Part shown: positions 44,777 through 58,243 of the stretch, in pieces
Layout: every line of letters begins with the position of its first letter
How positions within the stretch are numbered: the stretch's first letter is position 1
Assembly: GCA_963663405.2 (NCBI GenBank)
Contig: CAXXSM010000130.1
Coordinates: 32,001 to 96,000, forward strand
From: a bacterium
Lineage (GTDB): Bacteria; Hinthialibacterota; Hinthialibacteria; Hinthialibacterales; Hinthialibacteraceae
DNA: 64,000 nucleotides
Direction: 5' to 3'
Notes under the pieces: model-generated
What the model was told of the DNA's origin: nothing
The model's database searches: none
What the model saw: the letters and a program-made list of their open reading frames with translations, nothing else
Program-made: the position numbers and the translations under genes

Positions 44777-45650
44777 GTGGAGAATATGCAATTTTTCCAC
44801 GGAGTGGTAAATGTACATCTTATTATTATAAGAACACTGCCATACTGGTCTTTCGTATCATTTAAAATGTGTCTCAATTCATTTGTGATACATTGTTTGT
44901 AAGTAGGAATAATAGTGTTATAAATATTTAATTATATTGTTTTATTGGACTTAGATTCTTCCTATATAGAATTCGCTTTAGCGTTTTTATATCGATTCGA
45001 TTCTGGTTGTATCATTTCTAGTTGTTTTGAGACAGTTTTTGGTCGATTTATTCAAATAGAGATTTAGCACGGAATACATTGAATTGATTATGTTTACGAG
45101 AATTTATTCGAAATTTTAGAATTGATTTATATCTGGTATAGTTTTTGTATTATTTAATCAAACAATAAAGAAATCCCAATAAACTTGATGTATAATTTTT
45201 TAGTAGTATCATACGATTTTTAGATTAAATAAGTTTTCTTTTTTTGGGGATGTCAGGAACAGAGCAGTGTAAGAATGGAAAACGTTCATTGACTGTACCC
45301 AAATATGTATTAATAAAAAATAACCCCTTTTCAACCATAAGGAAAGGTGCTATGGTAGTATAATTGATTAAATTTTTGATGTTGTTTTTGTTTTTTGTGA
45401 TATAATATTTATAAGTTTTTAAATGCAGTGGATAGAAAGATTGTTTTTTATAATTGTAATTATTCATTGCACTTTATTTTTAATTTAAAAAAGAGCACGC
45501 ATTTACTGTAAATGTTTAATCGTTTTTTTTTACTATCGAAAAGGAGGTGTAAAAAATTTTTAGTAGAAATATGCTCTTTTTTAGGGTTGATTAATACGTT
45601 GTATTTGATTTGATTTTGATAGTGTTGAACTTGAGAGTATTTATTATAAA

Positions 45651-45725
45651 GTGGAAGTGATGATCTGTTCTTTTTTAATTGGTCGCCAAGAAAAGGGCAG
45701 GGAGCTAGTGGCGAATCCCCTCCAC
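45651..45725 (+). ncRNA. c-di-GMP-II-like riboswitch aptamer, copy 1
   Basis: P1 GUGGA/UCCAC, kink-turn-type UGA...GAG, stem CUGUUCUUUU/AAAAGGGCAG, loop UUAAUUGGUCGCCA with pseudoknot to UGGCGA; 40 nt before the ATG. Confidence 0.8.
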
Positions 45726-45765
45726 GCAATCAAATAGTAAACGATTACGTTAAGGAGGATTACTA

Positions 45766-46737
45766 ATGTATAAGAGTAAAATTTCCATTCTTCTGTTTAT
45801 TGGGGCTGTCAGTTTAGTATTGGCCCCGGTGTGCTCAGCACAGACGCCTACGCCTATACCAAATCCTGGTTCTCCCGTTCCTTGGTGTGATAAGGATTTC
45901 ATGGTTCATTTTAATAACGCAGGGCAGGGATATAGTGGGGATAGCTATTTTCTTTCTATATTCCAAGGAGCCTCTCCGGTTCCTGAAAGTGATTTTTCTG
46001 ATTGGTTTTGGAATACATTTATCAATGATCCAAATTATCAAGATGTATTGGACCTTTGGCTCATACAAGTGAATGCCGTTGTTGATCCCGATATTACAAT
46101 GGATGATCTTAAAACAGGGCTGTATCAAATGATGCATGATTTACTGTATGGGACTCCAGCTCCTCCTCCTATCACCTTGATTCCTGGAAGCCATTTTCCA
46201 GGATGGTGTATCGACTTATCAAAAAAGATACAATTGAATTATTGGCATTACTGTCCTTGGGTGCAGCGGACAATAAATGCGAATATGCTTCTTCCGTTTA
46301 GCTCACCAGTTGATCCAAACCTTAACGCTTGGTGCAATAATCCAGCAAATCTAGTTAAAGTGAATTATCTGCTTTCCGAATGGCGTAGAAATGCAATGGT
46401 TGATTTTGGATTGGGTTTCGAACCTTCGTGGCAGGAAATACAAGCGGCGATTTGGATACTGTTAGATGAAAATGTTGGTGGAAATCCATCCGGTCCGGAT
46501 CCCGATCCCAGCGATCCCAATCCAGCATTGCGTGGATATATTACCTGGGATGTCAATAATGTGGATGATGTAATTGCTGCAATAAATGCGAAACCTTCGA
46601 GTTTTTACGATAATTTGTTATTGTTCCAACTCTATCGTGTGTGTGTTATTGTATATAATGGTGATACAGAACAACGTACGCTGGTTGAGATGGAAGCCTT
46701 TTTATACTACATGTTGATGCAGTATGGCTTGATTTAA
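45766..46737 (+). CDS. Secreted stand-alone thioester-domain-like (TED/TQXA) protein 1
   Basis: Signal peptide; GWCID (Cys148), IQAAIW (TQxAxW-like, Gln226), EQRTLV (Gln303); hydrophobic C-terminus. Confidence 0.7.
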   Translation: MYKSKISILLFIGAVSLVLAPVCSAQTPTPIPNPGSPVPWCDKDFMVHFNNAGQGYSGDSYFLSIFQGASPVPESDFSDWFWNTFINDPNYQDVLDLWLIQVNAVVDPDITMDDLKTGLYQMMHDLLYGTPAPPPITLIPGSHFPGWCIDLSKKIQLNYWHYCPWVQRTINANMLLPFSSPVDPNLNAWCNNPANLVKVNYLLSEWRRNAMVDFGLGFEPSWQEIQAAIWILLDENVGGNPSGPDPDPSDPNPALRGYITWDVNNVDDVIAAINAKPSSFYDNLLLFQLYRVCVIVYNGDTEQRTLVEMEAFLYYMLMQYGLI

Positions 46738-46767
46738 ATGACCATTTAGGTTGTTAGCGAGTTGAAG

Positions 46768-46798
46768 AAAGGGGATCATTCAAAATGATCCCCTTTTT
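46768..46798 (+). terminator. Rho-independent terminator
   Basis: aaaggggatcatt-caa-aatgatccccttttt. Confidence 0.85.
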
Positions 46799-46800
46799 AT

Positions 46801-46882
46801 ATGATAATGAGTTTCAAAGACTTACTCGTTCTAGATTTCACCCGTAACTCATTTTCGCGTTGTGATCTCAACATGATGGTTT
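46801..46882. repeat. Hairpin element, family H copy 2
   Basis: atgataatgagtt...aactcattttc...tgtgatctcaacatgatggttt. Confidence 0.75.
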
Positions 46883-47527
46883 ATGCGAAACGGTTCTTAT
46901 ATGGCCAATCTGCAAATACATCTTTTTAATAGCTTTCATGTACGGGTGGAAACTTTTATGGATTCTTCAATTTGAAGATTTTGTAGAAACCAATTATTGA
47001 TTGAATCAGACAAACTTCTAATTTTGATTTTCAATTCATGTTTTTTGTATGTTTTTTATATTTCATATGATTTAACACTAATGAAATAAATTGAGTTGAA
47101 TAAGGTGTTTAGGATTTTCCATTCCATTCTATTCTTCCTTTGATGTAACGTTTTTTTCTGCATTAATTTAGTTTCAATTCTATCGATTTAAAGGATTTTG
47201 TGTAATAAATTAGTCATGTAAAAGGTTGTTCGACGAATAAAAAATACATAAAAACCTCTTTTCATTAATAAAAATTATGCTATAGTAATAGTAGTTAACA
47301 TTATATTCCTGATGCGTTGATCTTGTGTGGTGAGTATATTCTTATCTCGTTTTTTTTTGCTTGTAATGAAATATTGCATTTTATCTGTGGGTCTTTTTCT
47401 ATAATAAGTTCGTACAAATCGATATCAAAAGGAGAATTGCATGACAAAAATGATTGGATTTCTTTTTTAATATTTTTGTATTGAAGGTTGAGGTGATAGT
47501 GAGTTCCTTATTTGAATAATAATTATA

Positions 47528-47603
47528 GTGGAAGCGTTGAACCATTTTTTCTTTAATTGGTCGCCAATAGAAGAATGGGAAGCAAGTGGCGAACCCCCTC
47601 CAC
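47528..47603 (+). ncRNA. c-di-GMP-II-like riboswitch aptamer, copy 2
   Basis: GUGGAAGCGUUGAA CCAUUUUUUCU UUAAUUGGUCGCCAAU AGAAGAAUGG GAAGCAAGU GGCGA ACCCCC UCCAC. Confidence 0.8.
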
Positions 47604-47645
47604 GCAATCGAAATCTTAAAATGATTACGTTCAGGAGGATTTAAA

Positions 47646-48617
47646 ATGTATAAGAAAGTAATACCCAGTCTTTTCATCATAGGGGCTGTCGGCCTTCTCT
47701 TGGCGCCGTTTAGCTCAGCCCAGACACCTACTCCATTGCCGAATCCTGGTTCTCCCGTTCCTTGGTGTGATAAGGATTTCATGGTTCATTTTAATAACGC
47801 AGGGCAGGGATATAGTGGGGATAGCTATTTTCTTTCTATATTCCAAGGAGCCTCTCCGGTTCCCGAAAATGATTTTTACGATTGGTTTTGGAATACATTT
47901 ATTAATAATCCAAATTATCAAGATGTATTGGACCTTTGGCTCATACAAGTGAATGCCGTTGTCGATCCCGATATTACAATGGATGATCTTAAAGCGGGGC
48001 TGTATCAAATGATGCATGATTTACTGTATGGAACTCCAGCTCCTCCTCCTATCACCTTGATACCTGGAACCCATTTTCCAGGATGGTGTATCGACTTATC
48101 AAAAAAGATACAATTGGATTACTGGCATTACTGTCCTTGGGTGCAGCGGACAATAAATGCGAATATGCTTCTTCCGTTTAGCGCGCCAGTTGAGCCAAAC
48201 CTTAACGCTTGGTGCAATAACCCAGCAAATCTAGTTAAAGTGAATTATTTGCTTTCCGAGTGGCGTAGAAACGCAATGGCTGATTTTGGATTGGGTTTCG
48301 AACCTGCGTGGGAGGAAATACAAGCGGCGATTTGGATTCTGATAGATGAAAATGTTGCTGGAAATCCATCCGGTCCGGATCCCGATCCCAGCGATCCCAA
48401 TCCAGCATTGCGTGGATATATTACCTGGGATGTCAATAATGTGGATGATATTATTGCTGCATTAAATACGAAACCTTCGAGTTTTTACGATAATTTGTTA
48501 TTGTTCCAACTCTATCGTGTGTGTGTTATTGTATATAATGGTGATACAGAGCAACGTACGATGGTTGAGATGGAAGCCTTTTTATATTATATGTTGATGG
48601 AGTATGGTCTGATTTAA
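47646..48617 (+). CDS. Secreted TED-like protein 2 (near-duplicate of protein 1)
   Basis: Same length and motifs (GWCID, IQAAIW, EQRTMV). Confidence 0.7.
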   Translation: MYKKVIPSLFIIGAVGLLLAPFSSAQTPTPLPNPGSPVPWCDKDFMVHFNNAGQGYSGDSYFLSIFQGASPVPENDFYDWFWNTFINNPNYQDVLDLWLIQVNAVVDPDITMDDLKAGLYQMMHDLLYGTPAPPPITLIPGTHFPGWCIDLSKKIQLDYWHYCPWVQRTINANMLLPFSAPVEPNLNAWCNNPANLVKVNYLLSEWRRNAMADFGLGFEPAWEEIQAAIWILIDENVAGNPSGPDPDPSDPNPALRGYITWDVNNVDDIIAALNTKPSSFYDNLLLFQLYRVCVIVYNGDTEQRTMVEMEAFLYYMLMEYGLI

Positions 48618-48650
48618 ACGTACGTTTTATGTTTTTTAGTAAGATAAAAG

Positions 48651-48681
48651 AAAGGGGATCAATTCACGATCCTCTTTTTTT
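48651..48681. terminator. Probable bidirectional terminator between TED2 and LRR1
   Basis: aaaggggatc-aattcac-gatcctctttttt, with an A-rich left flank. Confidence 0.75.
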
Positions 48682-48698
48682 ATCTTCATTTGACGATT

Positions 48699-49931
48699 TT
48701 AATGCAACCACCAGTTCGCTACACTCGTTCCACACTCGTATGGATTCAGATTTAGTTGAGGAGAAAATGCGAAACCGTTCTGAAAATATTCATCAATCAA
48801 ACCAGTAAAAACTGGTTCACCCAAATGATCTATGAGAATCAATACATCATTCCAATCACCGCAATCTAACAGATTCCCTCGAATATCGAACGCGGTCAAC
48901 TCTGTATTCCCAAGTTCTACATAAGAAGCTATATTCGAGATGGAAGTGATTAGATTGTTCGTACAATCTATATATTTATAAGTGGCGCTTGGATGGATCA
49001 TTAGTTCTTCCAGACGATTATTACTACAAGTAAGATAGCGCAAGGAAACATTGACTGATAGATCAAGGATTTTAAGTTGGTTATTATTGCAAAAAAGAGA
49101 TTTTAAAAGGGGATTCTGAGACACATCCAGAACGTTCAATTGATTGTTATAGCATTCGATATAATCCAACGCTAGGCTTTCCGTCAAATCGAGCGAGGTG
49201 ATCTGATTGTCCGGACAGTAGAGTTTTAATAATGAGGGAAGGTTTGAAACATTCAAATTCTCAAGTTGATTTCGGCTGCAATCGAGATACTGTAAAGATT
49301 CGAGATTCGATACGTCTAAGTGTGTCAAGAGATTATCGTCACAATAGATTTTATTATACGGCGCCTCCTTTGAAAGGATCAGAGAATTGATTTGATTTCT
49401 TTTACAACTAATAAATTCCATCTCAGGATTATTTAATAGATCTAAACTCTCTAATTGATTTTCTATACATTCAAGCTGGTTTAATATGGAATTGCTAGAA
49501 AGATCGAGGGTAGTGATTTGATTCCATGAGCAATACAGAAATTTCAATCGAGTGTTTTCTGAAACGTCTAAACTACTAATCAAATTATGGGCGCAACTCA
49601 GCTCTTTTAAGTCTGTATTATTCCATAAGTCCAAATGGGTCAAGGCGTTGTCTGAACAATTTAATCTGGTGATGTTGGTGAAATACTCGATTCCGGTTAA
49701 ATCTTGAATTTCTTTCCTGACACATAAAAATGATTCTGTGACCGCCGCCACTTGCTCCGCCGTAAATTCCCCGCCAGGATCGACTCCTATATATTCTTCA
49801 ACCACAGTACGAAAATTCGGATCAGGGAAATTTTCCGGTGTGTTGATATTTTGAGCAAGGGAGTCTGCGATTGGAAAGAGAAAAAGAAGAAGAAACGCGG
49901 TTGTTTTGGATGAACTCACAATGTTGAACAT
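48699..49931 (-). CDS. Secreted leucine-rich-repeat protein LRR1 with C-terminal W motif
   Basis: ENFPDPNFR N-cap, 21-aa LxxLxCxxNxLxxLDxSxN repeats; ends GTSVANWWLH. Confidence 0.9.
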   Translation of the reverse strand: MFNIVSSSKTTAFLLLFLFPIADSLAQNINTPENFPDPNFRTVVEEYIGVDPGGEFTAEQVAAVTESFLCVRKEIQDLTGIEYFTNITRLNCSDNALTHLDLWNNTDLKELSCAHNLISSLDVSENTRLKFLYCSWNQITTLDLSSNSILNQLECIENQLESLDLLNNPEMEFISCKRNQINSLILSKEAPYNKIYCDDNLLTHLDVSNLESLQYLDCSRNQLENLNVSNLPSLLKLYCPDNQITSLDLTESLALDYIECYNNQLNVLDVSQNPLLKSLFCNNNQLKILDLSVNVSLRYLTCSNNRLEELMIHPSATYKYIDCTNNLITSISNIASYVELGNTELTAFDIRGNLLDCGDWNDVLILIDHLGEPVFTGLIDEYFQNGFAFSPQLNLNPYECGTSVANWWLH

Positions 49932-50067
49932 AAATTTTACACCTTTTTTCAAATTGATTTAAGATATATCTAAACTTGACGAAACTTATGACGAAACGGT
50001 GAGAAATCAAATAATCTATTACGAATTCATGGTTGAAACAATGTAAAATTTTCATATGCAGGTTTGT

Positions 50068-50156
50068 ATGAAAATGAGTTTCTAGGATTTTCTCCATCGA
50101 GATTTCTTCTGCAACTCATTTTCATTTGCGTGTTGTAATCTCAATCATAATGGTTT
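50068..50156. repeat. Hairpin element, family H copy 3
   Basis: atgaaaatgagtt...aactcattttcat...tgtaatctcaatcataatggttt. Confidence 0.8.
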
Positions 50157-50841
50157 ATACGTAACGCTTCTTATATGGCCAATCTGCAAATTCATCTTTC
50201 AAATGGCTTTCATGAAAGGCGGGAAGCCTTTATGGATTCTTCAACCAGAAGAATATGCAGAAACCAATTATTGAGTGGATCAGTCAAAATTCTAATTTCG
50301 ATTTTCATTTCCTATTTTTTATGCGTTTTTTTTATTATATCATGAATTTTATAAGATTCCTGCTGTTTTTTATATTTCATACGATCTTACAGTTTTGTAA
50401 TAAATTGAGTTGAATAAGGTGGTTAGGATCTTCCTTTCAATCCTTTCCTTCCTTGGATGTAACGTTTTTTTCTTTATTAATTTTGTTCTAATTCTATCGA
50501 TTTAAAGGATTCCATGTAAAAATTTTATCATTAAAAAGGTTGTTCGACGAATAAAAAATACAAAAAAGTCTCTTTTCATCAATGAAAATTATACTATAGT
50601 AATAGTAGTTAACATTTTATTTCTGATGCGTTGATCTTGTGTGGTGAGTATATTCTTATCTCGTTTTTCTTTTACTTGTAATGAAATATTCTATTTTTTC
50701 TGTTTGTCTTTTTCTTATATGAGTTCATACAAATCGATAGTAAAAGGAGAATTGCATGATAAAAATGGTAGGATTCCTTTTGTAATATTTTTGTATTGAA
50801 GTTGAGGTAATAGTGAGTTCAATATTTGAATAATAATTACA

Positions 50842-50916
50842 GTGGAAGCATTGAACCATTTTTCTTTAATTGGTCGCCAATAGAAAAATGGGAAGCAAGT
50901 GGCGAACCTCCTCCAC
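50842..50916 (+). ncRNA. c-di-GMP-II-like riboswitch aptamer, copy 3
   Basis: Near-identical to copy 2; precedes the truncated TED gene. Confidence 0.78.
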
Positions 50917-50950
50917 GCAATCAAAAAATGGTTACGTTTTGGAGGTAAGA

Positions 50951-51091
50951 ATGTTTAAGAAATTAATTGTTAGTTTTTGTTTTATAGGAATTACCGGTTT
51001 ATTTCTGTCTCCCATAATCATGGCCCAGTCACCAATATCTTAAACTTTGCCTGTTCCTTGGTGTGGGGTGGATTATCAGGTTGAATTTCTG
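50951..51091 (+). pseudogene. Truncated TED-like gene 3
   Basis: MFKKLIVSFCFIGITGLFLSPIIMAQSPIS*TLPVPWCGVDYQVEF matches the signal peptide plus PVPWCDKDFMVHF of TED1/2; in-frame TAA at 51041; similarity stops near 51090. Confidence 0.75.
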
Positions 51092-51250
51092 AGGCGCCAG
51101 TTCACGATGCCAGCGAAGAATCGTATCCAGGGTGAAAATTGTCGAGATTTCCTTCAAAATTTTCCGCTCCAGAGTCTTTCCTTTGACCGCGAGCCGGGCC
51201 CTCTGTTAATCGTTGAGTAGAATATGCTTTTTGCCTTGGACTTCGAGGAG
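51083..51250 (-). mobile_element. Transposase (integrase-core-type IS) N-terminal remnant
   Basis: Minus-strand translation QGKKHILLND*QRARLAVKGKTLERKILKEISTIFTLDTILRWHRELAPQKF resembles the TPDTILRWHR N-terminus of rve-type IS transposases. Confidence 0.7.
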
Positions 51251-51281
51251 TAACTCGACCTCTGTCGCAGACAAAACGTTG

Positions 51282-52718
51282 TTAGTGAATGTCCCAGTTT
51301 TTCACTTCTACAGATCCGCCTATTTGAAACGTCTGGTAATACCGTGTAGTAAAACTATTCGGCCCTTCCGGTGGGGAATAAATGAGCATCTCACCAAAAT
51401 TATTGTCAGCGCCTCGTGAGATGACTATGTTCCCAGCCGGATCGAATTGAGCGTCTCGGATCGGATCCGCCCCCGCGATAAACGAGTCAAGTTCCGTACC
51501 ATCATCCATACTTAAGATATACACCATCCCATCAATCCCGTTACCAGAGGCTGCGAACCAACGACGCCCTTCATCTAAATCCAAAGACGGCCGGTCAACA
51601 ATGGCTTCCCATTCGCTCCGCATGAATTGCTCTCCATCTGGTCTAAATCCGTAGAGATCTCCCACCGAAGTCGTTACGTAGATATTTCCCTCAGAATCGG
51701 CAACGAGACTGAAGGGGGGCCCAGCGGCGGGAGGATCATAATTTAAATCCGGATCGAGAAATACTTCAGGAGGAGTCGTCCAGGGAAGCGCGGCGTCATC
51801 GGGTACATTGTATTTCATGATGCTGCCGGGAGTAATGCCGGGCAAGCTATGGTCAATGGTATAAATGACACGTTTCTCTCCCGTGCCCAAGATAAGCATG
51901 TCCGAAATCGTTCCATTCGTTGTAGGCGTTTTGCGGGGTTGGATATCGCCACTGTCTTTTGGCGGCGAATAATCAGCATGTAAGAAGATTTGGAATCCCT
52001 CGTCGGTGAACTCAGAATTACAGATGGTGTTCCACATCGTCCGATTGACATACGTGTTGGTATACACCCGTCCATCCGGCCCGAAGTTAAGCGCAATGGG
52101 CGCGTCATCATTGCTCGCAAAAACAAACGACATGTTGAGTTCCGGGAAAGCCGTGTCCAGCGATCCTCCCCACCAGGTTCCATCCGGAGACATAAAGTAA
52201 ATGCCTTTAAATACGTTTAAAGAATCGATAACCTTCGTTCGATTGACACTATTGCGACGTCCCTGAATGATATAAATTCGTCCAAAATTCGATCTGGATT
52301 GGTCCTTCCCAATTAAAACACCACGAGGACGATGAAAGACGTTTTGGGGATCGACTGGATTGATGCGTTCCCAGCTGGTATGGCCATTGTCCGAAGCGTT
52401 AATTTCAAATGTGTAAGTACCATCGGCAACGACTTGTCCCGCATCATCAAGACCGTCCCAGATAACATGGTTCATACCTTGCGCAGTGGAACCGGACAGC
52501 GTTCGTACAACAACACCATCTGATACACGTAGGATACGTAATTCAACACCGTTATCCGCGGCCTCATTGAGTAAATAATGAAATTCGCCTCCCACGCCTT
52601 CAGTGGAATCGACCTCAACCGACAACTGGCAGGCGAATACATTCGCGTCAGCGGATTTTGGGAGTAAAACAGCCAAACCGAAAATAAACAAATACCCTAA
52701 ATTGGAAAACCGTATCAT
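51282..52718 (-). CDS. Secreted protein with N-terminal FlgD-Ig-like domain, propeller-like region and C-terminal W motif
   Basis: VVRTL...GMNHVIWDGLDDAGQVVADGTYTFEI; ends SVEVKNWDIH. Confidence 0.75.
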   Translation of the reverse strand: MIRFSNLGYLFIFGLAVLLPKSADANVFACQLSVEVDSTEGVGGEFHYLLNEAADNGVELRILRVSDGVVVRTLSGSTAQGMNHVIWDGLDDAGQVVADGTYTFEINASDNGHTSWERINPVDPQNVFHRPRGVLIGKDQSRSNFGRIYIIQGRRNSVNRTKVIDSLNVFKGIYFMSPDGTWWGGSLDTAFPELNMSFVFASNDDAPIALNFGPDGRVYTNTYVNRTMWNTICNSEFTDEGFQIFLHADYSPPKDSGDIQPRKTPTTNGTISDMLILGTGEKRVIYTIDHSLPGITPGSIMKYNVPDDAALPWTTPPEVFLDPDLNYDPPAAGPPFSLVADSEGNIYVTTSVGDLYGFRPDGEQFMRSEWEAIVDRPSLDLDEGRRWFAASGNGIDGMVYILSMDDGTELDSFIAGADPIRDAQFDPAGNIVISRGADNNFGEMLIYSPPEGPNSFTTRYYQTFQIGGSVEVKNWDIH

Positions 52719-52772
52719 GGTTCTTCGTCCTTTCCTTATTTATTTTCCTCTTCATGAATCAAACCACTCAGA

Positions 52773-53600
52773 TTAAGGAACACGAAAATTAGCCGCTTGA
52801 GAGATTTCTTCGGAACTCATCGCTTCCCTGGCATTGGGTGGAAAGGAAAGCAATGCGTCGGCTGTTTCCTTGGCCAATTCACTGTCTGTGGTTTGGATGG
52901 CGAAGTGGATATAGGTAACCGTACTGTTGGCTGGAATCGTTATATCCGTCCAAGCATACCGATAGTCTTCCGAACGCTGGAATACTTCATCGATACCATC
53001 CACTGTTCCATTTGAGTTCCAGACATGACCAACGAAAGGATCACTCCCATCATTGTCACCCGTGATGACATAAGAATCACTGGTTTCCAGTTCCGTATCT
53101 CCGTCGGATGTCGCCACAATATACGTGTGATCATCGGATCCGAGATTGCCGAAAACCGCAATTTCCGCTGAAACCGGTTGATCGGTTGTGTTCGTGAGAA
53201 TTTCCAGCCACCGTCCGTACACTTCCTCTGGAGAAACAAAGAGTTTTCTTTGGACTACCAGAGCCCCCATCGTCTGGGTTTCCCAAACATACTCATTGCC
53301 ATCCGAATCAGGATCGTACTCTTTAATCAAGGCTATATAAGGCCGGAATACCCCATTCTCCCGGACCGCCAGAAAATAGCAGCCGTCATAGGCGTCACTG
53401 CTGCCATCCTCCAGCGCGCCGCTCCTTACACCCGCGTCATAAACCATCCCTTCACCATTCCGTAAATCACCGCATTGGTTGCCGTCTTCATTATCAAATG
53501 GTGGTGGCAGTGTCTGACTGCCCGCATCTACACTCAATAAGAGAATCACCAGCGTTATCCAACTACACCATTGCCATCGTTCATGCTTCATGATGAACAT
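52773..53600 (-). CDS. Secreted acidic hypothetical protein
   Basis: Signal-peptide-like N-terminus; DGSSDAYDG, RWLEILTN, GNLGSD. Function unknown. Confidence 0.65.
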   Translation of the reverse strand: MFIMKHERWQWCSWITLVILLLSVDAGSQTLPPPFDNEDGNQCGDLRNGEGMVYDAGVRSGALEDGSSDAYDGCYFLAVRENGVFRPYIALIKEYDPDSDGNEYVWETQTMGALVVQRKLFVSPEEVYGRWLEILTNTTDQPVSAEIAVFGNLGSDDHTYIVATSDGDTELETSDSYVITGDNDGSDPFVGHVWNSNGTVDGIDEVFQRSEDYRYAWTDITIPANSTVTYIHFAIQTTDSELAKETADALLSFPPNAREAMSSEEISQAANFRVP

Positions 53601-53785
53601 CTCCCTTCATTGATTTAGTATAAGACTGTCAGCTCTCGTACTCTGAATACGAATCTCTCCCCACTAACTGGCAGAAATGCCTTCTATAAATTACAATAAA
53701 TATTATTTATACTAACATAAATTTAACATAACACTAACATAAATAAATTAAGTTAGCAAGACTCCTTACTAAGAATAAAGATCAA

Positions 53786-55066
53786 TTAATTCATCAAAAA
53801 TGATTTGTGTAGATAGGCTTTTTTTGAGAGATCTAATACAAAAACCCAATGGATGACAGGGGTAGCGCATTCATATGGATTCAGAGTATTTTGCGGTGAA
53901 TAGGCGACTCCATTGTTTAAGAATAGGCCATCTTCATCGAAAAATACTGGTTCCCCAATGTGATTCAACAGTGTCTTCACATCGTTCCAGTCCTCGCAAT
54001 CCAGATTGTTTCTCCGAATATCGATCGCGATTAACACTTCGATGTCTTGTTCTACATAGCCGGCTAGATTGGAGATGGAAGATAATTGGTTATCGTTGCA
54101 AGAGAAGCGTATGAATTTCGCATTTGGATGGATCGTTAATTCGCTTCGCTCGTTATCACCACAACTGAGAAAGGACAGCGATTCATTGGCTGAAAGATCG
54201 AGGATATCGAGCTGGTTTCCACTGCAGAAAAGGGATTGTAGTGCGGGATTTTGATATACATTGAGGATCGGCAATTGGTTGTTTGCGTATTCAAGGTAAT
54301 TTAATTTTGCGCTGTTTCCAAGATCGAGTTCCACGATCTGATTATCCGAGCAATAAAGTTTCTCTAATGAAGAGAGGTGAGATACGTCTAAAGTTAGGAG
54401 TTGATTGCGGTTGCAATCGAGAAATCTCAACTCCTCTAAATTCGACATGTTCAAATGAGTCAGTTGGTTGTCATCGCAGTAGATTTTATCGTACGGCGCT
54501 TGTTTTGAAATCACTAACGTTTTTATTTGATTTCTTTTACAACTGAGATAACACATGTTTGGATTGTTTGGTAAATCTAAACTTTCTAACTGATTCTCAA
54601 GGCATTCAAACTAGACCAAGGCTATATTGTCCGATAGATCGATATTTTTGATGTGGTTCCGATAACAGTACAAGTATTTCAATTTGGGGATATCAGAGAC
54701 ATTGAGACTGCTGATTTGATTGTTGTAACAACTCAAAGTCTTTAAATCGGTGTTGTTCCATAAATCCAGGTGGGTCAAAGCATTGTCAGAACAGTATAGT
54801 TCTTGAAGACTCGTAAAGAATTTAATACCGGTCAAATCCTGAATCTAACTCCCCAGACAGATTAGAGGACCTGTCATCAACGCAACATTTTCCGCTGTAA
54901 ATTCATCGCCCGACTCGACTCTCATGAATACTTCAACCGCTGTGCGGAAATTAGGATCGGGAAAATTATCGGGTGTGTTGATGTTTTGGGGTAAGGAATC
55001 TGCAATTGGAAAGAGAAAGAAAAGAAGAAACACGGTTGTTTTAAATGCGCTTGCGATGTCAAACAT
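53786..55066 (-). pseudogene. LRR2, decayed paralog of LRR1
   Basis: Three ORF pieces (54845-55066, 54611-54835, 53786-54556); frameshift near 54845, in-frame TAG at 54611, altered C-terminus after TPVIHWV. Confidence 0.85.
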
Positions 55067-55886
55067 AAATTTTACAACTTTCTTCTTAATGGACTAAAGA
55101 TATATCAAAACTTGACGAAACTTAGGACGGAACGGTGAAAAACCGGATACTTTTATTACGAATCTATGGTTGAGGCGCTGTAAATAATTCATTGTTAAGA
55201 GTAATAAACGGTTCTTAAAGTCCAATTTGCAAATTCATCTCCCTTTAGGTCTTCATGTAAGGTGGGAAACCTTGATGGTTTCTTAAGGAGATGAACATGC
55301 ATAAACCGATATTTGAATGAATCTGGTTAAACTTTTCATTTCGATTTTCTGATCATCTTTTTTTATGCGTTACTTATTATATCATGATTTAAAATGACTC
55401 CTTCTGTTTTTCATATTTCATGCGATCTAACAATCATGGAATAAATTGAATTGAATAAGGTGGTTAGGATTTTTCTTCCAGTCATTTCCATTCTAGTGTG
55501 TAACGTTTTATGATTCTAATTTTTTTTAAAAATCTATCGATTTAATTGATTTTATGTTAAAATTTAATTAGAAAAGAGGTTATTCGACAAAAAAAAATAA
55601 CAAAAAAACCTCTTTTCATTAATGAATATTGTGCTATAGTAATAGTAATTAACATTATGTACGGGGTGAATTAACATTCTGTATTGATCAGCGTATATTC
55701 TTGTTCTTATTTTTTATGTAATGAAACATTGCGTTGAATTTGTGTTTGAGTTTCTTTTTTTAAAAATTTGAAAAAAAATGAAAAGGAGAATTGTATGCTA
55801 AAAATGTAGGGATTCCTTCTCTAATTTTATTATGATTTTGGTTGAGGTGATAGTAAAGAAAGTGTTTTTAAAAAAACTTGATTAGA

Positions 55887-55961
55887 GTGGAAACGTTGAA
55901 CTATTCTTCTTTAATTGGTCGCCAACAGAAGAATGGGGAGTCAGTGGCGAACCCCCTCCAC
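55887..55961 (+). ncRNA. c-di-GMP-II-like riboswitch aptamer, copy 4
   Basis: GUGG AA ACGU UGAA CUAUUCUUCU UUAAUUGGUCGCCAAC AGAAGAAUGG GGAG UCAGU GGCGA ACCCCC UCCAC. Confidence 0.82.
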
Positions 55962-55991
55962 GAGATTTTTCTCGCGAAGGAGAGAAGAGAA

Positions 55992-56909
55992 ATGAAGAAA
56001 CGATATGTCGTCTTAGTAAGTTGTATTGTTCTTGGTCTGGCTATGGCGCCAGTCAGTTATTCAACTCCATCAGAAGGGCCTTATTATTATCCTCATTTAG
56101 GTCATCTTTTGGAATTTCCCAATGGGCCGAATTGTACTCCTGGAATTGAAGATTATCAAGTAGACAGTTATTTCGGAGTTTCTATTCTTCCATGTGGTGA
56201 TCTTCCGGGATGGATCAATGATGCGATCAATATTTTTGTCGTCTGGTTTGATACACCATATGGTTTGATAAATAAAAGTCCGCGGGAGAGAATTGAAAAT
56301 GCGATTGGACAATCGCTACCTCCAACACAAGATATTGTCGCATGGATTTTCACGTTTATCGTGCCGCCGGATATTCCACAAAAGGTGATTCCCGGCTGGT
56401 GCGCCAATCTAAGGGACTACGCGAAATTAAACGATGTGTGTTGTGGGCTGACGATTCATGGAACGGTTGATATTTCTCCTTTAGGATTTTTAGATTGGAA
56501 TTGGTGTAACCGTACGTTGACATCCCGCTTTACTACTCCTATGGTCAATCAATCGGGTAATCTGCTCGAAGTGAATTTCCTGATCGATCAGTTCCGTATG
56601 AATTTCGTGATGTATCCGGATTTAAACACTCGCAATATTTCGTGGCGGGCGATTCAGCGTGTGATTTGGGATTTGACACAGGATTTGAGTCTCCCTGGCA
56701 CTCATCAAAATGGTTATATTTGTCTTACAAACAAAGATTTAGAAGATGTAGATATCCTTAAAACATGGATCGCCGGTTTGGATTTAGAGGGCAATATCCC
56801 GATTTGCGCGTTCTGTTATTTGACGATTGTCATCTATTGTGAAGGTGGACAAGAAATTCTCGTCGAAGTGCCGTGGTGGCTGTATCTGATTCTTTACGAT
56901 TTACATTAA
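55992..56909 (+). CDS. Secreted TED-like protein 4 (divergent, Cys-rich paralog)
   Basis: Signal peptide MKKRYVVLV; DSYF, PGWCANL, NLLEVNFL, SWRAIQRVIW, GQEILVEV. Confidence 0.68.
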   Translation: MKKRYVVLVSCIVLGLAMAPVSYSTPSEGPYYYPHLGHLLEFPNGPNCTPGIEDYQVDSYFGVSILPCGDLPGWINDAINIFVVWFDTPYGLINKSPRERIENAIGQSLPPTQDIVAWIFTFIVPPDIPQKVIPGWCANLRDYAKLNDVCCGLTIHGTVDISPLGFLDWNWCNRTLTSRFTTPMVNQSGNLLEVNFLIDQFRMNFVMYPDLNTRNISWRAIQRVIWDLTQDLSLPGTHQNGYICLTNKDLEDVDILKTWIAGLDLEGNIPICAFCYLTIVIYCEGGQEILVEVPWWLYLILYDLH

Positions 56910-57007: not shown

Positions 57008-58243
57008 TTAATAAACGGTCCAATCCGGCACGGCTGTTTCACAATCGAATGGATCGAGATCGTTTTGTGGAGAATAACCGAATCCATACGTTAATTGTGT
57101 TTGATTCCAAGGAACAAAAACAGGCTCCCCGATTCGATCCAATAATAGAATCACATCCTCCCAATCATCACATTGAAGATTGTTATATCGAACGTCTACA
57201 AGCGCTCCCAACGCGGCGCCGATATATTCATTGCTTACGATATTTGATAGATTCGACAGCTGATTGTTTTGACATTGAAGGGAATTCAAAACAGCGCTAT
57301 TCGGTAAGATAAGTTCTGTCAAGAGATTGTCTTGGCAGATACATTGTCCAAGGGATTCCGCTGATGAAACATCCAATTGCGTTAATTGATTGGAGGAACA
57401 GATTACGGATCCTAGAGCGATATTCTGAGTGAGATCGATCGTATGGAGAAGATTATCGCGGCAATCCAGTGTTTCCAATGTGACGTTGCTCGATAAATCC
57501 AACGTTGTGAGCCGGTTGCTGGCGCAGTTGATTTCGGCGAGGGCCGCGCAGCCGCTTAGTTCGAGTGTTCCCAGCTGATTGTCATAACAATTCAATACTT
57601 CCAAGGATGTGTTGTTAGAGATGTCCAAACTCGCAAGTTGGTTGCTGAAACATTTGAAGGTTTGAAGTTTATCGTTCTCCGATATCGAGAGTTCATTCAA
57701 GCGGTTGCGGCTGCAATCGGCGATTTGAAGTTTTTTGTTGTAGGAGAGATCCAACGTCTCGATTTGATTGATAAAGCAATGAAGATGTTTCAGGTTGGTG
57801 TTGTTGAAAAGTTCGAGACTTGTGAGTTCGTTTTGATCACAGACCAGTATTTTTAATCCAGTGTTTTCATAGAGATATAACTCTGTCAATTGATTCGCGT
57901 GACAGTTCAACTCCTCCAAGGCGGTATTCATTGTTAAATCTATACTTTCCAATAGGTTATTGTTGCATATAAGTTTGGTTACATTAGGGAAAAAATGAAT
58001 GCCGGCCAAGGAACTGATCTCACGGGCTGGACATTCCAAGGCCTTTGTGGCCGCCGCCGCTTCTTCCGCCGTGAAAGCGCCGTCTGACTCAACCTCCATA
58101 TATTCCTCAACCGCCGCCCGGAAATTTGGATCGGGAAAATTCTCTTCTGTGTTGATGTTTTGCGCGAAGGAATGAATGCTTGTTAAGGCCAGAAGTAGAA
58201 TCAGAAAAGCAGTTTTCCCAGAATTCTTACATACGTTCATCAT
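57008..58243 (-). CDS. Secreted LRR protein LRR3 with C-terminal W motif
   Basis: ENFPDPNFR cap, Cys-type 21-aa LRRs; ends TAVPDWTVY. Confidence 0.9.
   Translation of the reverse strand: MMNVCKNSGKTAFLILLLALTSIHSFAQNINTEENFPDPNFRAAVEEYMEVESDGAFTAEEAAAATKALECPAREISSLAGIHFFPNVTKLICNNNLLESIDLTMNTALEELNCHANQLTELYLYENTGLKILVCDQNELTSLELFNNTNLKHLHCFINQIETLDLSYNKKLQIADCSRNRLNELSISENDKLQTFKCFSNQLASLDISNNTSLEVLNCYDNQLGTLELSGCAALAEINCASNRLTTLDLSSNVTLETLDCRDNLLHTIDLTQNIALGSVICSSNQLTQLDVSSAESLGQCICQDNLLTELILPNSAVLNSLQCQNNQLSNLSNIVSNEYIGAALGALVDVRYNNLQCDDWEDVILLLDRIGEPVFVPWNQTQLTYGFGYSPQNDLDPFDCETAVPDWTVY

Follow-up and report, generated by a model that had tools for sequence, protein, structure and literature searches.

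A putative lineage-restricted subclass of the c-di-GMP-II riboswitch fold, without the pocket guanine G73, ahead of secreted-protein genes in a Hinthialibacterota genome

The window analysed here is a stretch of 64,000 nucleotides (64 kb) of contig CAXXSM010000130.1, from a bacterium of the Hinthialibacterota whose assembly (G000, hereafter the source genome; 8.44 Mb in 170 contigs) is 82% complete. On its + strand lie four elements that match Rfam family RF01786, the class II riboswitch for cyclic di-guanosine monophosphate (c-di-GMP-II, or GEMM-II), over the full length of the model (positions 1–84). They emerge in an Infernal search of the window against Rfam in E-value mode; at gathering thresholds the window contains no match to any Rfam family. 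Aptamer 1 (45644–45732; 43.8 bits, E 5.9e-7), aptamer 2 (47521–47609; 33.9 bits), aptamer 3 (50835–50922; 35.2 bits) and aptamer 4 (55880–55968; 39.3 bits) all score below the RF01786 cut-off of 53.5 bits. Each ends 24–37 nucleotides (nt) ahead of a start codon, with a Shine-Dalgarno sequence in between. The genes that follow, also on the + strand, encode a protein of 323 amino acids (aa) with a signal-peptide-like N-terminus (P0001, 45766–46737), a second 323-aa protein 91% identical to it and likewise with a signal-peptide-like N-terminus (P0002, 47646–48617), a signal-peptide-like frame of 30 aa that runs into a stop, so that the gene is broken (50951–51043), and a 305-aa distant paralogue of P0001 with 24% identity over 201 aa and again an N-terminus of the signal-peptide type (P0003, 55992–56909).

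Direct reading of the four copies bears out their architecture as it was given in a preliminary description of this DNA. P1 is formed by GUGGA and UCCAC throughout (45651–45655/45721–45725, 47528–47532/47599–47603, 50842–50846/50912–50916 and 55887–55891/55957–55961), and the limits originally set for the group are those of P1, which begins at 45651 in copy 1 and ends at 55961 in copy 4. The stems do vary with pairing kept, as had been stated: P3, located at 45665–45674/45691–45700 in copy 1, reads CUGUUCUUUU/AAAAGGGCAG there versus CUAUUCUUCU/AGAAGAAUGG in copy 4, with full pairing in both. The pseudoknot UCGCC/GGCGA is complementary in 4/4 copies (45683–45687/45710–45714, 47561–47565/47588–47592, 50874–50878/50901–50905 and 55919–55923/55946–55950), and the junction behind it is AUCCCCU in copy 1 (45715–45721), ACCCCCU in copies 2 (47593–47599) and 4 (55951–55957), and ACCUCCU in copy 3 (50906–50912).

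The junction forms one strand of the ligand pocket. In the c-di-GMP-II structure PDB 3Q3Z, G-alpha of the ligand is stacked between A61 and A70 and bonded to the sugar edge of A69, and G-beta is stacked between A70, the intercalating adenine, and A13, turning its Watson-Crick edge to G73, to the O6 of which it gives two hydrogen bonds, with a third to the A70 ribose (PMC13715770). When the window copies are aligned to the family with Infernal, the consensus A69-A70-C71-C72-G73-g74 becomes, in all four, A, U or C, C, C, one inserted base, C and U. The reader of G-alpha, A69, is thus kept as the A that follows GGCGA (4/4 window copies and 18/18 sequences of the wider group defined below), A70 gives way to U in the first copy and to C in the other three, and position 74 is a U that pairs with A13. 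G73, the reader of G-beta, is absent: the stretch from the end of GGCGA to the 3' strand of P1 holds no G in any copy, and a C is aligned opposite its position. Since the junction is G-free, no shift of register can restore G73, and a shifted alignment is ruled out as the cause of its apparent loss. The one copy for which Infernal itself picked a shifted alignment, on contig C18 of the source genome, regains AACC in this way and still has C opposite G73. The preliminary description had stated that the second A and the G of the canonical junction contact the ligand, and had found pyrimidines at these positions in all four copies. This is right for G73, but it is the first A, A69, that hydrogen-bonds to G-alpha, A70 contributing its ribose and its intercalation (3Q3Z, PMC13715770); likewise, positions 70 and 73 are pyrimidines in every copy, but, with A69 kept in all four, it does not follow that all contact positions are.

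The deviation of the pocket strand is real, as judged from the junction reading, a group-specific model and covariation, and belongs to a conserved type. In the source genome there are 21 RF01786 matches at E ≤ 1, of which 0/21 exceed the cut-off, and they split into two discrete groups, A and B, with no intermediates seen. Group A members (two copies on contig C22, one on C23, and an array of three tandem copies on each of C38 and C106) have G73, a junction AACCG, ACCCG or AUCCG, and a pseudoknot UCACG/CGUGA or UCGCG/CGCGA. Both arrays consist of abutting G73-bearing aptamers with junctions ACCCG or AUCCG, ACCCG and AACCG; the one on C38 (19821–20076, + strand) is followed by the gene for a 134-aa secreted protein, and within 200 nt behind the one on C106 (58402–58659, − strand) no comparable reading frame starts. 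Group B, to which the window copies belong, has the junction consensus A-(C/U)-C-C-N-C-U and includes a tandem pair on contig C18. When 11 group B copies of this genome are made into a covariance model (R1), it finds 22 elements there, 11 intact ones at 75.9–100.6 bits and the rest at ≤ 61.6 bits. The window copies score 95.7, 94.3, 99.2 and 97.2 bits, in order, and two of the low scorers (C27 and C55:7676; 58.3 and 50.1 bits) look like decayed members of group B.

Collecting homologs, as the preliminary description had proposed, shows that the junction type recurs. In a comparison set of 35 species genomes of the class (4–8 Mb each, the source genome included), group B was also found in two of the 34 others (G031 and G028), both from other families; it is also present in one contig of a metagenome-assembled genome (L067) and in 5 metagenome contigs. 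A search of the whole class, covering the 35 genomes, added nothing to the search of relatives. Over 18 group B sequences, 94.2% of the cells in paired columns are paired, and both sides change in 15/25 base pairs, including all 10 of P3 and 3/5 of P1. Slid controls reach only 44–53% pairing, and 0/500 shuffles attain the observed covariation, a figure that is not a probability, the aligned rows having been fitted to the model and 10/18 of them being paralogues from a single genome. The pseudoknot is invariant inside the group and covaries between groups (UCACG/CGUGA, UCGCG/CGCGA, ACGCC/GGCGU).

We conclude from these sequence comparisons that group B is a conserved subclass of the c-di-GMP-II fold, probably restricted to a lineage, and not a product of decay; the four window elements would be working aptamers of it. 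It has retained P1, P2, P3 and the internal loop, the pseudoknot that joins the P3 loop to the 3' strand, A69 and the ceiling A, as well as the conserved blocks GGA, UGA, UGG, GAGC and AGU and the junction CC of the parent class, and it shares with that class a position in leaders of surface-protein genes. Tandem copies occur in the source genome as in published cases (PMC9481103). What sets the subclass apart from the parent is an extra variable base after C72, a conserved C in place of G73, C or U at position 70, a U at position 74 by which the non-canonical pair of A13, on top of P1, becomes an A-U pair, and a pseudoknot UCGCC/GGCGA versus GCAC/GUGC; in the window copies, P1 is in addition only 5 base pairs long and the scores stay below the cut-off.

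A further check raised in the preliminary description was whether such a junction is common among Rfam members. It is not in the samples examined, 48 distinct metagenome aptamers sharing the pseudoknot pattern and 24 aptamers from 93 genomes of another phylum. Among the former, G73 is present in 43/48 (L200 by inspection, the remaining 42 by regular expression), and the other 5 all belong to group B; for 4/61 metagenome loci (L168, L183, L192 and L217), the model had no match at E ≤ 0.001. The other-phylum aptamers carry AACCG (21), ACCCG (2) or AACCU followed by G (1), so that G73 is found in 23/24. The last of these (L238, G088:C2:5507-5591) has AACCUG after the pseudoknot, with U at the G73 position and G next to it, a single departure of a different kind. 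A pattern scan of genome contigs was too loose, with a true aptamer at 1/80 among the matches listed and chance matches in high-GC genomes. G73 is also upper-case in the consensus lines of all three Rfam families of this fold (RF01786, RF03169 and RF03170). Position 73 is therefore close to invariant, and position 70 is variable (A, C or U), also in aptamers that have G73: ACCCG and AUCCG, with a pyrimidine at 70 and G73 kept, occur in this genome and in metagenomes, and ACCCG also in the other phylum. Given such aptamers and the consensus GCCCG of the GCG variant, a pyrimidine at position 70 is not diagnostic.

The GAG (RF03169) and GCG (RF03170) variants of c-di-GMP-II, candidate altered-ligand classes in Rfam, were reportedly defined by Weinberg et al. 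in 2017 (PNAS 114:E2077). The consensus lines read GUGC-AACCG for RF01786, GGCGA-GACCG for RF03169 and GGCGA-GCCCG for RF03170, which suggests that the variants are named after the bases at positions 69, 70 and 73 (A-A-G in the parent). On this scheme the window copies would be A-(C/U)-C with a one-base insertion, neither GAG nor GCG. Their end-to-end fit to RF01786 is accompanied by scores of 31.6, 30.8, 30.6 and 27.9 bits for RF03169 and 38.3, 38.1, 37.6 and 35.6 bits for RF03170, so that they fall below all three cut-offs (40 and 47.9 bits for the two variants, respectively). The GCG variant is their nearest relative, with the same pseudoknot (consensus GGUCGCC ... UGGCGA), C70 as in 3/4 window copies and CC at 71–72; unlike group B, with A69 and no G in the junction, it has G69 and G73. 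Two group B copies from outside the source genome, L189 (48.2 bits, just above the cut-off) and L173 (47.3 bits), also score best with RF03170. The GAG variant shares the pseudoknot strand GGCGA and the CC, and none of its consensus bases G69, A70 and G73 is matched by the window copies.

Between each aptamer and its start codon, no terminator-like sites were found, and the leaders fold in a way that would suit control of translation. In the minimum-free-energy fold of leader 1 (platform 45716–45768), the pyrimidine run that spans the junction and the 3' strand of P1 pairs with the Shine-Dalgarno sequence AGGAGG (45753–45758), reinforced by an inner helix CGCAAUC/GAUUACG, ahead of the ATG at 45766. 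In leader 2 (47597–47648; ATG 47646), the minimum-free-energy fold pairs CCUCCACG with CGU..GGAGG, covering the Shine-Dalgarno sequence at 47633–47638, and in leader 3 (50906–50953; ATG 50951), CCUCC pairs with GGAGG (50941–50945) around an inner helix CGCAAUC/GGUUACG, the whole leader having a fold z-score of −2.95. Leader 4 (55955–55994; ATG 55992) folds with CCU paired to the AGG of its Shine-Dalgarno region AAGGAG (55977–55982) over an inner hairpin CGAGA-UUUU-UCUCG, the sequence of which is unlike the inner helix of copies 1–3. Across group B, the pyrimidine run pairs with GGAG in the minimum-free-energy folds of 11/17 leaders, and this pairing and P1 are mutually exclusive. Group B leaders therefore look like translational ON switches: ligand binding would lock P1 and the pocket, and a locked P1 would free the ribosome-binding site and turn on translation of the secreted, adhesin-like proteins. 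Because the pyrimidine run is an anti-Shine-Dalgarno sequence, C and U in the junction would be selected for in that role, and their conservation by itself says little about ligand contacts. In public RNA data, contigs from three libraries of three studies lie on the coding region 45778–46761 at ≥ 99% identity, and none of them lies on 45644–45732; as contigs of this kind do not reveal where a transcript starts and may stem from carried-over DNA, nothing follows from this for the aptamer.

Neither Pfam nor NCBIfam has a family that matches the window's controlled proteins, and a profile search of PDB sequences with these proteins gave 0 matches at E ≤ 10. Relatives are few, 10 by phmmer among 1.84 billion representatives and 2 by word search. 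The C-terminal ~190 aa of the window's proteins recur in other riboswitch-controlled proteins of the source genome, and this domain is common to targets of group A (648 and 432 aa, on C22) and of group B (in the window and on C149, C55, C27 and C85), where the leucine-rich-repeat proteins on C149, C55 and C27 carry it at their C-termini. The structure model of P0001 is of low confidence (mean predicted local distance difference test score, pLDDT, of 57; ~52–89 per 10-residue block over residues 150–323). Thioester domains of Gram-positive adhesins make up 7/8 of its best PDB structural matches, which are weak (Z 3.7–5.3, root-mean-square deviation 4.2–4.9 over 119–143 residues). Three residues, C148, Q226 and W230, do not vary among 12 sequences, and C148 and Q226 are reminiscent of the thioester-forming Cys and Gln of such adhesins; Pfam TED (PF08341) has no match to these genes in the genome. 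The ~190-aa domain may, on this modelling, be a predicted covalent-adhesin domain outside the known range of such domains.

A second target family, a conserved secreted protein of ~255 aa that belongs to no known family, follows 8/8 external group B aptamers as well as the tandem pair on C18. Its member there lies at L008:701-1462 (− strand), the others at L201, L189, L173, L176, L209, L067, L022 and L023. The C-terminal half of the C18 model resembles chaperone-usher pilins (best Z 7.2, root-mean-square deviation 3.9 over 130 residues), a level of similarity (Z < 8) that can reflect a common fold. In the C18 locus, the ~255-aa protein is followed by one of 546 aa that has a hydrophobic N-terminal segment.

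Around the controlled genes of the window, the 200 nt upstream of aptamers 2–4 are alike, and three genes for LRR_4 proteins on the − strand (48699–49952, 53786–54556 and 57008–58243) are convergent to the controlled genes, which gives the region the look of repeated cassettes. The 240 bases after the truncated frame behind aptamer 3 hold no listed + strand reading frame (window 50951–51281); next to the broken gene comes a convergent gene for a 478-aa FlgD_ig protein (51282–52718, − strand).

We suggest that the ligand of group B is still c-di-GMP, a reading to which we assign a probability of roughly 55%. A69 would read G-alpha as in the parent class, and the new junction C would read G-beta by a Watson-Crick pair. 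Since the Watson-Crick edge of G-beta faces position 73, a cytosine there could form such a G-C pair, as C92 does in the class I c-di-GMP riboswitch (PMC5888326); the class I (GEMM-I) fold is unrelated and serves as an analogy, with no homology claimed. The genomic context points the same way. Groups A and B control one shared domain family and genes of the adhesion type, and adhesins are the usual c-di-GMP-II targets (PMC9481103). The source genome has 9 GGDEF matches, 6 of them full-length (127–178 bits), and 5/6 of these have an intact GG(D/E)EF. All six full-length domains carry an FKxxND-type motif or a near form, with Asp at the base-reading position, and the GGDEF domains look canonical; in no GGDEF domain of this genome is that Asp replaced by Ser. 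There is one DAC domain, and SMODS has no match in this 82% complete assembly.

Several observations weigh against c-di-GMP as the ligand or against the switch as drawn above. G73 is nearly constant elsewhere, and to lose it while gaining a base is just the sort of change by which specificity switches are marked in other riboswitch classes. Groups A and B stand side by side in one genome, and no intermediates were seen, a picture that would suit two signals no less than two affinities. The C-G pair with G-beta is proposed on grounds of geometry, the anti-Shine-Dalgarno role alone may explain why C and U are conserved in the junction, and the sequestering pairing is absent from the minimum-free-energy fold in 6/17 leaders. 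In a genome that is 82% complete, moreover, a missing cyclase family proves little.

Alternatively, group B may be a specificity variant whose beta half-pocket, rebuilt by the loss of G73, the extra base and the pyrimidine at position 70, senses another nucleotide, for instance 3'3'-cyclic GMP-AMP (3'3'-cGAMP) or another cyclic or linear dinucleotide. The loss of an otherwise nearly invariant base, the extra base in the junction, the persistence of both changes over families of the class and metagenomes with covarying stems, and the presence of two discrete groups side by side in one genome all speak for this reading, and there is a precedent in the one-base change that retunes the c-di-GMP-II fold towards cGAMP isomers (PMC13715770). 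We nevertheless consider a changed specificity, as the preliminary description had put forward, the less likely reading, since A69, the reader of the alpha site, is unchanged, position 70 is not diagnostic, and the context shows no sign of another ligand: aptamers with and without G73 control the same domain family, the adhesin- and pilin-like targets are typical c-di-GMP output, and neither a SMODS domain nor a GGDEF domain with Ser in place of the base-reading Asp was matched in the source genome. C being the natural partner of G, a guanine-containing ligand is in any case still expected.

It seems improbable that group B binds no small molecule and is a structured leader acting as a constitutive Shine-Dalgarno mask, as a thermosensor or as a site where a protein or an RNA binds. 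The key contact G73 is lost, and the first base pair of P2, which in 3Q3Z is an A-U pair abutting the ligand backbone (PMC13715770), is unpaired in 11/18 group B sequences. Aptamer 3 (50835–50922) is moreover intact although its gene is broken, so that an intact sequence is by itself no proof of current use. Against this reading, A69, the ceiling A, the GG/CC, the pseudoknot and the internal loop are all kept across distant sequences; the two decayed copies differ clearly from the rest and show what relaxed constraint looks like here, and the C18 tandem pair mirrors known tandem c-di-GMP-II arrangements (PMC9481103). That the matches are spurious can practically be dismissed. All four do lie under the gathering cut-off, yet they are full-length, fall within 10 kb, share the 5' leader orientation at 24–37 nt from start codons, and score 94–99 bits on the group model. 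Chance is refuted by these group-model scores, by stems that covary against shuffles and slid controls, and by the recurrence of the same variant ahead of homologous genes in unrelated contigs. The c-di-GMP reading remains the one we favour.

Pocket variants of c-di-GMP-II are, as an idea, already in print and in Rfam. The cGAMP-specific GEMM-Ib variants are a precedent for a single pocket-base change that gives a new ligand class. Closer to the present fold, deleting one base from a natural c-di-GMP-II aptamer suffices for 2'3'-cGAMP to be admitted, and the deletion variant binds 3'3'-cGAMP at 11 nM (PMC13715770). That engineered aptamer (c-di-GMP-II-Bh, BhP1-5delC) shows that a change of one nucleotide in length can alter the cyclic-dinucleotide selectivity of this fold; unlike group B, which is natural and without that G, it keeps G68 and three adenines (PMC13715770). 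No description of a natural G73-less c-di-GMP-II form was found in the literature searched, a search that did not extend to the paper defining the variants or to supplements. In Weinberg et al. 2017 (NAR), the main text gives no account of the variants, and supplementary material may bear on whether this junction type had been listed before.

Variants of known folds that differ in pocket bases have repeatedly been seen to sense new ligands: cGAMP in relatives of c-di-GMP-I, and 2'-deoxyguanosine, xanthine and 8-oxoguanine in relatives of guanine aptamers. A natural c-di-GMP-II relative without G73 is for this reason a concrete and cheap candidate for binding assays. The subclass is invisible to standard annotation, as none of the 21 RF01786 matches of the genome exceeds the cut-off and the four in the window pass no Rfam cut-off, and the genes behind it make up a regulon of secreted proteins that lack annotation, in what appears to be a phylum-level lineage, here represented by 35 species genomes. 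If group B still binds c-di-GMP, it would provide a second way for the c-di-GMP-II fold to read guanine. Should its specificity have changed, which we hold to be less likely, two nucleotide second messengers would run in parallel in this little-sampled phylum, in command of covalent-adhesin-like and pilin-like surface proteins.

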